Assembly: GCA_040005235.1 (NCBI GenBank) | Contig: JBDTZG010000001.1 | Coordinates: 128,001-192,000 of the forward strand | Length of the DNA: 64,000 nt | Direction of reading: 5' to 3' | Source of the DNA: Acidobacteriota bacterium | Lineage (GTDB): Bacteria; Acidobacteriota; Thermoanaerobaculia; Multivoradales; UBA5704 | Shown: positions 40,901-43,900 of the stretch, in pieces | How positions within the stretch are numbered: the first letter of the stretch is position 1 | How the letters are laid out: the number at the start of each line of letters is the position of its first letter | Made by a program: the position numbers and the translations under genes | The notes under the pieces: model-generated | What the model was told of the DNA's origin: nothing | Databases searched by the model: none | The model's input: the letters and a program-made list of their open reading frames with translations, nothing else

Positions 40901-43900
40901 GTCGGGCATAAGGTGATCAACGCCTATGGGCCGACCGAAAACACCGTCTGCATCGCGATGCATTCGTTCGTCCCCGGCTCCGGCCGGCTGCCGCTGGGGC
41001 TCCCGACGCCGGGAGTCGACGCCTACGTCCTCGACCGCCGGGGCAACCTCTCGCCGGCCGGAGCTCCGGGCGAGTTGGTGGTCGGCGGCATCGGCCTCGC
41101 TCGCGGCTACCTCGGCGCGCCCGATTTGACCGCCGAGCGTTTCGTCCCCCATCCGTTCGCCGCCGCGCCCGGCCTGCGGCTCTACCGCACCGGCGACCTG
41201 GTGCGGTGGTCGGCAAATGGCGAGCTGGAATTCCTCGGCCGCATCGATACCCAGGTGAAGGTGCGCGGCTTCCGCATCGAGCTGGGGGAGATCGAGCGGG
41301 CGCTCTCCGCCCACCCCAGAGTCCAGGAGGCGGTGGTGGTCGCACGGGCCGAAGGGGGAACCGAAAAGCGGCTGGTCGCCTACGTCGTGCCGCGCGCGGA
41401 CTCCGCGGAATCGGCCGGTCCTCTCGATGCGGCGGAGCTGCGCGCTTTTCTCGGGCGGACGCTGCCGGAGTACATGATTCCTTCGGCGATCGCGACCCTT
41501 CCTGAGCTGCCGAAGAACACGAGCGGCAAGGTCGATCGCAAGGCGCTCCCCGATCCGCGCGAGGTGGGCGCCGCGGAGCGCGAGATCGCGGGCCCGAGAA
41601 ACCCGCTCGAAACCTTTTTGGTCGGCCTGTTCGCCGAGACGCTCCACGTGAAGACGGTGGGCATCGACGAGAACTTCTTCGAGCTGGGCGGCAACTCGAT
41701 CGCGGGCGCGATGCTGGTCAACCGCCTTCAGGAAGAATTGGGCGAGATCGTCCACGTCGTCGTGATGTTCGAGGCGCCGACGATCGAAGGTCTCGCGGCC
41801 TACCTGGTCGAGAACTACCCCTCCGCGCTGGCTCGACGGTTTGGGCTCGCGGGCGGCGGCGCTGGAGCGAGCGCAGGTCCACTCACTCCAATCACCGAAG
41901 AGAAGATCGCGGCGTTTTCCGCGCTGGTGCCAGTGCGCAAGCCGGTCCGTCTGGAGGGCGCACGGAAGAACCCCGGCGTGTCGTTCGTGCTGTCGCCGCC
42001 GCGCTCCGGCTCAACACTCTTCCGCGTCATGCTCGCCGGCCATCCGCTGCTGTTCGCTCCGCCCGAGCTGGAGCTGCTGCCTTACGACGATCTGCGCGAG
42101 CGGCGCGACGACTTCCCCGGCCGCTACAACCATTTCCTCGAAGGGGCGGTGCGCGCGGTGATGGAGTTGGATCGTTCGGGGGCTGAAGCCGCCGAAGCGA
42201 AGCTCGACGCCTGGGAGCAGGAAGGGATCTCGATGGCGGAGGTCTTTGCCCGCTTGCAAAAAGCCGCCGAGCCGCGGCTGCTGGTCGACAAGACCCCCGG
42301 CTATTCGCTCCACCCGAGCATCCTTTCGCGCGCCGAGGAGATGTTCGAGGGCGCCCGCTACGTCCACCTGATCCGCCATCCGTACGGCATGATCCGGTCG
42401 TTCGAAGAGGCGAAGCTCGATCAGGTGTTCTTCCGCGCCGAGCACAGCTTCACCCGCCGCGAGCTGGCGGAGCTGGTCTGGCTCGTCTCGCACCGCAACA
42501 TCCTGGCGTTCTTTGAATCCATTCCCGCCGAGCGCAAGCACGCGGTGGTGTTCGAGCAGCTGCTCGCCGAACCGGAGCGCGTGCTGCGCAGCGTCTGCGA
42601 ATTCCTCGGGCTCGATTACCAGCCCGACATGGCGGCGCCTTATCAGGCATCGGCAGAGAAGCAGTCGGCGCGGATGACCGACGGCCTTCACTCCTGGTCG
42701 CGGATGGTGGGCGACGTCAAGTTCCACGAGCACGGCCGGATCGAGCGGGGCGTCGCGGATCGCTGGAAGAACGAGATCGGCGAAGATTTTCTCGGCGAGC
42801 CGACGCGCGACATGGCGGAGACCCTGGGCTTCGCCCGTCGCGAGGCGGGCTGGGTGCCGCTGGGGTCCGCCGGCTGGCAGGTCGGGCAAGAGCTGCCTCT
42901 GTCGTTCGCCCAGGAGCGGCTGTGGTTCCTCGCCAGGCTCGAACCCGAGTCTCCCGCCTACAACGTGCCGAGCGCGCTGCGCCTGCGCGGCGCTCTGTCG
43001 GTGCCGGCGCTTTCCGCCGCGCTCGACGCGCTGGTCGAGCGCCACGCCGCCCTGCGGACGCGCTTTGCCGATCGCCTCGGCCATCCGGTGCAGATCGTCG
43101 AGCCAGCGCGGCCGGTGAAGCTTGCCGGCATCGACCTGTCCCGGATCGACGGCGCGGCGCGCGAGTCCGAGCTGTCGCGGTTGGCCCTCGGCGAGGCGCT
43201 CCGTCCATTCGATCTGTCGCGGGCGCCGCTCCTGCGCGCCGCTCTGGTGCGGCTGGCCGACGACGATCACGCGGTCCTGTTCGCGATGCATCACATCGCC
43301 TCGGACGGCTGGTCCTCCGGCATTCTGGCGGGTGAGATCGGCGCGCTCTATGCCGCGGCTCTGGAGCATCGCGCGCCGGCCCTCGCCCCTCTGCCGATTC
43401 AGTATGCCGACTATGCGGTCTGGCAGCGCGCCTGGCTCACCGGGCCGACGCTCGACTCTCACCTCGCTTGGTGGAAGGAGTCGCTCGCGGCGGCTGCGCG
43501 CGGCGGCGAGCTGCCTCCGGCGCTTGAATTGCCCACCGATCGCCCGCGCGGAGTGTTGGGAGGGGGAGCGAACAAGCGCGGAGCCACTCGCTTCTGGGGG
43601 ATTCCGGCCGAGCGCCTGAACGGCCTCGACCGCTTGGCGCAGGAAGAGGGGGCAACACCGTTCATCCTGTTTCTGGCGGCATTCGGGGCACTGCTTGGGC
43701 GCGCTTCGGGTCAGACCGATTTCGCGGTCGGCACCCTGGTCGCGAACCGGACGCGGGCGCAGATCGAAGGGCTGATCGGCGTGTTCATGAACACCCTCGC
43801 GCTGCGGCTCGACCTCTCGGGAGATCCGAGCTTCCGCGAGCTGGTGCGGCGAACCAAGAGCCTGTCGCTCGGCGCGTTCGCGCACCAGGAGGTGCCGTTC

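Follow-up and report, generated by a model that had tools for sequence, protein, structure and literature searches.

The subject of this report is a sulfotransferase (ST) domain embedded in a nonribosomal peptide synthetase (NRPS) assembly line of an uncultured Acidobacteriota bacterium. The window analysed is a stretch of 64,000 nucleotides that corresponds to positions 128001-192000 of contig C118 (324,677 bp), in a genome of 6.22 Mb and 66% G+C that is rated 100% complete with 0.33% contamination. It holds a cluster of four collinear polyketide synthase (PKS)/NRPS genes, and the ST lies in the second of these, one open reading frame (ORF) at 28970..49492 that encodes a hybrid PKS/NRPS of 6840 amino acids (aa). 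There it directly follows a module that is predicted to incorporate tyrosine, and the evidence described below points to a domain that probably sulfonates this residue while it is still bound to the assembly line. All the features of the cluster that are given here with coordinates lie on the + strand.

The order of the domains was obtained with hidden Markov models (HMMs) made of the window's own domains and cross-checked with Pfam. The first gene, NRPS 1 (25341..28973), encodes 1210 aa with the condensation (C), adenylation (A) and carrier (T) domains, C-A-T, of the line's first module, whose A domain has the code DPRHLVLRA. This unusual code resembles DPRHIILRA, found at locus L054, and DPRHFGFQA, found on contig C84 of the same genome. 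The hybrid protein continues the line with the layout KS-AT-T-(C-A-T)x3-ST-(C-A-T)x2; its ketide module consists of a ketosynthase (KS), an acyltransferase (AT) and a carrier, and no ketoreductase (KR) was reported by Pfam anywhere in the protein. NRPS 3 (49489..56205) is a (C-A-T)x2 protein without an ST, with the codes DVWHISLVD (Ser) and DFWNIGMVH (Thr). NRPS 4 (56202..64000), of 7272 aa, extends beyond the window to contig position 206020 and has the layout C-A-T-C-A-T-(extra C-like domain, probably an epimerization domain)-C-A-T-(C-A-T)x3-TE, so that the sole thioesterase (TE) of the cluster stands at the end of the fourth protein.

The ten-residue codes of the A domains were read by alignment, with positions picked by a rule that we take to be that of the GrsA numbering. 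The line starts with DPRHLVLRA, the ketide module, DILQ-GMVW twice, DASTVAAVC (then the ST), DAWQFGLID and DAATVAAVC, and goes on with DVWHISLVD, DFWNIGMVH, DAATVAAVC, DVLSVGRIS, DFWNVGMVH, DASTIAAVC and again DILQ-GMVW twice. Following what we take to be the assignments of the Stachelhaus table, these codes include those for Gly, Tyr, Gln (DAWQFGLID), Ser and Thr. The module that precedes the ST consists, after its C domain, of A3 (aa 3684-4193, 40019..41548), in which the code DASTVAAVC of a preliminary description of this DNA was recovered by alignment as the Tyr-type DASTVAAVCK, and of the carrier T3 (aa 4209-4281, 41594..41812), with the motif GGNSI at aa 4240 and the phosphopantetheine Ser at aa 4243 (window 41696-41698). 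By code, the residues before Tyr are Gly-Gly, and no other nearby hydroxyl of the chain is predicted. Directly after the ST comes a normal C domain, C4 (aa 4635-5080, 42872..44209), with HHIASDG at aa 4774; the layout proposed earlier, in which the ST is followed by such a domain and not by a TE, is thus the one found.

The ST itself spans aa 4332-4621 (41963..42832), limits that were set from an alignment with the STs of CurM and of the olefin synthase (OLS). The preliminary description had placed it at 41970-42840, and Pfam, phmmer and this alignment all agree on an ST at that site. The HMM search that had been suggested returned Sulfotransfer_3 (PF13469) with E=6.3e-29 and 102 bits (cut-off 27), together with Sulfotransfer_1 (E=1.7e-8). 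Against the PDB, phmmer gave the OLS ST (4gox, E=1.8e-67) and the CurM ST (4gbm, E=2.6e-64) with 220-231 bits, and a match to tyrosylprotein sulfotransferase 2 (TPST2) at about 7e-5 and 25 bits; the expected CurM/OLS type with a resemblance to TPSTs is therefore present, the latter being remote. An AlphaFold2 model of the domain, made from an alignment of 55 rows, has a mean predicted local distance difference test score (pLDDT) of 90.3. Its template modelling (TM) scores are 0.88/0.92 to 4gbm and 0.87/0.93 to 4gox, with 38% identity in the structural alignment, and 0.52-0.61 to the TPSTs (TPST2 about 0.58). The stand-alone ST StaL (2ov8) is likewise distant (E=9.6e-5, TM 0.42/0.50). By sequence and fold, the domain is a member of the CurM/OLS ST family, on its NRPS-type branch; by sequence it does not belong to the family of TPST and RaxST.

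The motifs quoted for the ST in the preliminary description, as well as the GGNSI of T3, are all in frame in the ORF of the hybrid protein: LSPPRSGST starts at aa 4341 (window 41990), PPEL at aa 4364, DKTP at aa 4440 and RHPYGMIRS at aa 4469. To gauge their conservation, 200 ST domains, taken from both NRPS and PKS contexts, were aligned, and a column was called conserved if one residue occupied at least 90% of the rows. In the PRSGST loop (aa 4344-4349, 41999..42016), which we take to be the 5'-phosphosulfate-binding motif, R4345, G4347 and T4349 are conserved in 99% of the STs. Glu4366 of PPEL (42065..42067) is invariant (200/200) and aligns with the E of PPEL in the CurM and OLS STs and with the GEET of TPST2; this candidate catalytic base presumably has the role assigned to its counterpart in the CurM/OLS ST study. 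RHPYGMIRS (aa 4469-4477, 42374..42400) contains R4469 (100%), H4470 (99%), P4471 (100%) and S4477 (99%), and its RHP...S is presumably the 3'-phosphate-binding motif, the roles of the conserved ST residues being in every case those we assume from the sulfotransferase literature.

Degenerate catalytic residues would have spoken against an active enzyme, and none are found. The window ST holds the consensus at 67 of the 69 conserved columns, both misses being F for Y, and the conserved set that is present comprises R4345, G4347, T4349, E4366, D4440, K4441, R4469, H4470, P4471 and S4477. Compared with five orthologous Thermoanaerobaculia loci, its ratio of nonsynonymous to synonymous substitution rates (dN/dS) is 0.10-0.18, the lowest of the module together with that of T3; for C3, A3, C4 and A4 the values are 0.15-0.68. 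The domain is thus intact, conserved and under purifying selection, and from its residues it looks active. These data bear on the proposal that the ST is dead or a structural relic and that the product is an unsulfated lipopeptide. The proposal can draw on a four-residue insert, AEKQ (aa 4562-4565, 42653..42664), which is present only in the ortholog group, is variable in sequence there and is missing from the other 94% of STs. It has to contend with the retention of all the residues of the motifs for 3'-phosphoadenosine-5'-phosphosulfate (PAPS) as the donor, of the invariant Glu and of the Lys among the 67 conserved positions kept, with the low dN/dS, with the confident model and with the PAPS route of the genome described below, and it is extremely improbable.

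The carrier that serves the ST is also distinctive. Among 140 NRPS carriers that have an ST after them, the core motif is GGNSI in 43, GGDSI in 35, GGDSL in 22, GGSSI in 15, GGNSL in seven, GGHSI in five and GGHSL in three, with none in four, whereas 74 of 89 carriers followed by a C domain have GGHSL and two have GGNSI, counts that take in close relatives and carry no correction for ancestry. A motif of the GGNSI type, other than GGHSL, is a hallmark of ST-partnered carriers, and T3, whose motif had been singled out earlier as atypical, fits it. The window unit accordingly conforms to a general pattern, an A-T-ST unit whose carrier does not read GGHSL and which has C or TE after it.

This pattern is not unique to the window. 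A search for longer proteins that contain the ST gave 1246 matches at E<=1e-20, and contexts and codes were taken from the best 120, in which nearly all the named proteins are NRPSs of Thermoanaerobaculia or other Acidobacteriota. These 120 hold 123 ST occurrences: 58 in T-ST-TE, 40 in T-ST-C, nine in T-ST at an incomplete protein end, eight in ST-C and four in ST-TE at an incomplete protein start, and four in other contexts. The rarity that the preliminary description had implied does not hold, given that T-ST-C and T-ST-TE are frequent in metagenomic Acidobacteriota NRPSs. Counted by genome, the domain is rare: of 401 evenly sampled Acidobacteriota genomes, with at most five candidates scored in each, four match at E<=1e-50, among them the genome of the window itself and one from its family that holds four copies. 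The upstream A domain could be read in 71 of the 121 ST rows formed by the best 120 and the window (the other 50 are unreadable, the proteins being incomplete), and the code is Thr-type in 18, Ser-type in 15, Tyr-type in 10 (window included), DG[LF][FY].GE[IV]. in 21 and of other kinds in seven.

Other relatives of the domain appear in the same genome and further away. A second NRPS, on contig C84 (21.5 kb, - strand; ST at 6177-6824), has the arrangement Ser(DVWHISLVD)-T-ST-C within an odd layout of repeated C-T units without A domains (A-T-C-T-C-T-C-A...), and a third T-ST-C fragment lies at the start of contig C55 (1-2623). Further Sulfotransfer_3 matches occur outside NRPS frames on contigs C104 (two), C35, C86 and C139. 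Among the best 120 matches, 21 consist of one C-A-T-ST-TE module with a length of about 1700 aa, and some of these are named Pyrinomonadaceae. At 45% identity to the window ST or less, loci L040-L081 are PKS modules of the type KS-AT-ACP-ST (ACP, acyl carrier protein) that form a CurM-like branch and are hosted by cultured myxobacteria (Corallococcus, Archangium, Myxococcus, Pyxidicoccus), Cellvibrio, Roseovarius and Chloroflexota; after most of their STs, no TE was detected by a single-sequence model of the NRPS TE.

A FastTree phylogeny of the 200 STs separates these groups. All 34 STs from PKS contexts fall on one side of a branch with support 99 and the window ST falls on the NRPS side, inside a seven-row clade (support 99) in which every row has an aromatic code upstream. 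When the residue classes of the upstream A domains are mapped on the tree, the six classes require 10 changes, against a mean of 79.5 after shuffling (none of 200 shuffles reached so low a number); the 22 aromatic-coded rows alone require three changes and the 47 Ser/Thr rows seven. The phylogeny of the STs thus follows the class of the upstream residue. The STs of the DG[LF][FY].GE[IV]. proteins form one clade (support 99) and have L/Y at the two positions discussed next, like one of the Tyr-linked clades.

Two columns of the 200-ST alignment discriminate between the classes. The best is that of Trp4576 (42695..42697): all 22 aromatic-coded STs have W or L there, and none of the 47 Ser/Thr-coded ones has a hydrophobic residue, most of them having E. 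The second is that of Tyr4386 (42125..42127), with Y, F or H in 20 of the 22 aromatic-coded STs and in one of the 47 Ser/Thr-coded STs, which mostly have D or N. The distinction also held in rows outside the discovery set: on contig C84, the Ser-linked ST has E both at 4576 and at 4386, the four Thr-linked STs of genome G357 all (4/4) have D at 4386 and E at 4576, and the ST of the C55 fragment has D and E at the discriminating positions, from which it is predicted to be of the Ser/Thr type. W4576 lies in an eight-residue variable loop between the invariant M4569/G4572 and G4581/D4582. The model is at its least confident here (block 241-250, mean pLDDT 65), in keeping with a mobile loop. The STs of CurM and OLS reportedly have a dynamic active-site flap that governs substrate choice, and the NRPS-type STs are longer than the PKS type by residues around aa 4490-4493 and 4575-4576. 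Together with the motif of the carrier, the two discriminating positions provide simple sequence rules for genome mining and for tests at the bench.

The association with Tyr can be followed most closely in the orthologs. Loci with 83-97% ST identity belong to metagenome-assembled genomes (MAGs) of Thermoanaerobaculia, all the close relatives being metagenome-assembled. Six such loci, L004-L008 and the partial L028, have a readable A domain upstream, and in every one of them the code before the ST is DAST[VA]AAVC; the partial locus L020 starts inside the ST, so that its A domain is unreadable. The succession Gly-Gly-Tyr-ST is repeated in L005, L006 and L007, and a Gln-type module comes next in L005 and L006. 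A second group (L009-L013), with about 63% ST identity, has DAATVAAVC before the ST. In L007 and L008, A3-T3-ST is 74-86% identical to that of the window and C4 and A4 fall to 47-61%, so that it is A(Tyr)-T-ST that travels as a unit. Locus L008 has, in one protein, Tyr-ST, then Thr without an ST, and then Tyr-ST again; from its two Tyr-T-ST modules, a doubly sulfated relative is predicted.

This comparison is relevant to another explanation, namely that the ST sulfonates a different hydroxyl of the chain tethered to T3 and that its position after Tyr reflects timing, not target. The candidate hydroxyls are those of a 3-hydroxy fatty acyl starter, of the first residue (DPRHLVLRA) and of the ketide, as an enol or a trans-reduced alcohol. 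It is true that the STs of CurM and OLS use beta-hydroxyacyl thioesters, that the first module opens with a C domain, in line with an acylated starter, and that in other phyla the ST follows aliphatic-looking codes. Yet the starter is five building blocks away from the ST, the A(Tyr)-T-ST unit is kept in orthologs even with C4 and A4 replaced, and the STs of L008 stand after both Tyr modules and not after the intervening Thr; in addition, the ST subtypes track the class of the upstream residue, and the hybrid protein lacks a KR by Pfam. Target sites elsewhere on the chain are, on balance, unlikely.

Activity of the ST would require PAPS, and the genome is able to make it: a 594-aa frame on contig C99 (17932-19056, -), far from the cluster, fuses ATP sulfurylase (E=1.2e-86) with adenosine 5'-phosphosulfate (APS) kinase (E=8.6e-57). 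Nearby cysC or cysDN genes, for which the preliminary description had recommended looking, did not turn up when the larger ORFs within the cluster and around it were scanned. Pfam scans of the flanks took in the larger ORFs of the first 25 kb of the window and of some 17 kb downstream of the cluster; they showed neither a hydroxylase nor a sulfatase nor a PAPS gene, and several ORFs had no Pfam match. In the whole genome no cytochrome P450 was matched, and TauD gave four matches, none of them on the contig of the cluster. Sulfatase-family matches number 24 in the genome, the nearest about 50 kb beyond the end of the cluster, a distance for which a pro-drug scheme with a cluster sulfatase was rejected. 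A beta-hydroxylase was considered as well, and neither the Pfam flank scans nor the genome searches for P450 and TauD gave a candidate in the cluster.

The latter idea belongs to a further alternative, in which the ST is an activating enzyme that works on beta-hydroxytyrosine, either loaded by A3 or produced by a trans enzyme; the beta-sulfate would then be eliminated, giving dehydrotyrosine, or would serve as a leaving group, and the product would bear no sulfate. Such a role would be in keeping with the solved members of the family, which activate a beta-hydroxyl for elimination, and with the beta-hydroxyls of Ser and Thr, the residues that NRPS-type STs most often have as neighbours. An aromatic pocket would also suit a beta-hydroxy aromatic residue, and a hydroxylase could be hidden among the several flanking ORFs without a Pfam match. 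What makes this alternative very unlikely is that no hydroxylase family occurs among the larger flanking ORFs, that the genome has no P450 and its TauD genes lie on other contigs only, and that four of the 10 Tyr-coded rows (best 120 and window) are T-ST-TE, where CurM-style release would be impossible without a beta-hydroxyl.

Taken together, these observations favour on-line, PAPS-dependent O-sulfonation of the carrier-bound Tyr by an in-line ST of the CurM/OLS family, with the sulfate kept, and on the sequence evidence we consider this probable. The phosphopantetheine arm of T3 would carry Tyr, on its own as an aminoacyl thioester or as the end of the peptidyl thioester acyl-X-ketide-Gly-Gly-Tyr, and would swing it into the adjoining ST. 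There, Glu4366 would deprotonate the phenol of Tyr, which would attack the sulfuryl group of a PAPS molecule gripped by PRSGST and RHP...S. C4 would then hand the O-sulfated chain to the Gln module, and the terminal TE would finally release a lipopeptide of 14 residues and one ketide, with sulfotyrosine at position 3 of its peptide part. In this scheme, we infer the acceptor atom, the timing (aminoacyl or peptidyl) and the retention of the sulfate. The sulfate would be expected to stay, because an aryl sulfate has no beta-elimination route, no TE follows the ST, and the sulfate is retained with the NRPS-embedded STs of OciA and DysB. The phenol as the target, with a retained sulfate, is best supported by the conserved Tyr-ST pairing, the ST tree, the lack of a nearby hydroxylase and of any P450 in the genome, and the retention in OciA and DysB.

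A number of points weigh against this interpretation and have to be set beside it. The closest solved relatives, the STs of CurM and OLS, act on beta-hydroxyacyl thioesters and not on phenols. The line has a second Tyr-type module (NRPS 4, DASTIAAVC) and two DAATVAAVC modules without an ST. That DASTVAAVC stands for Tyr is what we take from the Stachelhaus table, and a literature search for the code strings of the A domains returned no match. The association between residue class and discriminating positions comprises one independent contrast on well-supported branches and three on all branches; with so few, it is statistically inseparable from shared ancestry of A-T-ST blocks, and inheritance of these units as blocks could yield the association without any functional coupling. 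Other codes also precede STs. The rows with DG[LF][FY].GE[IV]. are T-ST-TE in 21 of 21 cases, and DIWEITADD and DLKN[VF]GSDV precede STs too. At loci L021, L025, L026, L027 and L029, hosted by Chloroflexota, a Cytophagia MAG and a Bryobacterales MAG, the codes before the ST are of the type DAFF[MLS]G[AV]TF, which is presumably Ile/Val-like; by code, then, a hydroxy amino acid is not the universal neighbour of the ST. The STs of these five loci form a clade of their own, with G at aa 4576 in four of the five.

The surroundings of the cluster contain genes of other kinds. About 3.6 kb upstream lies a type I restriction-modification operon (window 13483-21753, -), made up of hsdR (13483-16617, -), a Schlafen/AlbA_2-HATPase_c_4-HTH gene (16599-18002, -), hsdS (17999-19249, -) and hsdM (19240-21753, -); ORFs without a Pfam match lie upstream as well. 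The downstream flank encodes a PLD-like protein, a di-haem peroxidase-like protein and unknowns.

In the extracellular signalling of eukaryotes, sulfotyrosine serves as a strong recognition element, and it occurs in ribosomal proteins and peptides, where it is formed by TPSTs and RaxST. If the interpretation is correct, the self-contained A(Tyr)-T-ST would be a new type of NRPS tailoring domain, and a class of sulfated lipopeptides from uncultured Acidobacteriota would have been missed by standard structure prediction; the module might also be transplantable, to put sulfotyrosine into designed peptides. A broader proposal is that the NRPS-embedded STs of the CurM family have radiated into residue-specific tailoring domains, with an aromatic and a Ser/Thr type that differ at aa 4576 and 4386 and have dedicated GG[NDS]S carriers, that A(Tyr)-T-ST is a portable sulfotyrosine module which recombines from one assembly line to another, and that the product would be the first nonribosomal sulfotyrosine peptide; we see the chances of this proposal as evenly balanced. 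That such sulfated lipopeptides act on eukaryotic sulfopeptide-binding proteins, or mimic their ligands, is speculation, as it was when mimicry was first suggested for this locus.

How does this ST compare with systems that have been described? Searches of the literature outside subscription journals and supplements brought up neither an ST placed behind an elongation module for Ser, Thr or Tyr nor a nonribosomal sulfotyrosine; they yielded only the loading modules of OciA and DysB, stand-alone STs and PKS ST-TE systems. A 2024 list of characterised natural-product STs has none of the in-line, elongation-module kind (PMC11143521), and a 2022 review only proposes the engineering of TPST modules into NRPSs (PMC9372746). 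StaL, TotS and SulN sulfate NRPS products as well, as stand-alone genes of other ST families, and none of them is fused to a module; SulN acts in the sulfazecin pathway.

The STs of CurM (curacin A) and of the OLS of Synechococcus PCC 7002 share with the window ST the fold, the PAPS motifs, the Glu of PPEL and a carrier directly before the ST. They differ in their context, which is a PKS ACP-ST-TE tridomain where a beta-hydroxyacyl group is sulfonated and the TE then decarboxylates and eliminates, whereas the window has A-T-ST-C in an NRPS. Thus the window ST departs from these systems in its module context and lies outside their PKS-type tree group. The substrates differ too: the one predicted here ends in Tyr and has no elimination route, and that of CurM and OLS is a beta-hydroxyacyl thioester.

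OciA (Planktothrix cyanopeptolin 1138/oscillapeptin E) and DysB (dysinosins) are closer in architecture, being NRPSs with an ST; there the sulfate is kept in the product, as sulfated glyceric acid (GA) (PMC2533009, PMC6520454). The window shares with them an ST fused in an NRPS directly after a carrier. In OciA and DysB, the starter is glyceric acid, with GA/FkbH loading at the start of the line, whereas the window has C-A-T in mid-line and an aromatic code; Pfam found no FkbH domain in the hybrid protein, and the domain upstream of its ST is an adenylation domain. An FkbH-like protein with T-ST is among the matches (P0094, 54% ST identity), which indicates that this other architecture uses the same ST family.

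In terms of chemistry, finally, the proposed reaction is like that of TPST1/2 and RaxST, a PAPS-dependent O-sulfonation of peptidyl-Tyr. Theirs takes place on free ribosomal peptides and proteins, and the substrate of the window ST, unlike these, would be a nonribosomal intermediate tethered as a thioester. The domain type is widespread, and it extends known chemistry without breaking any of it; the pairing with Tyr is the feature that is specific to this locus.

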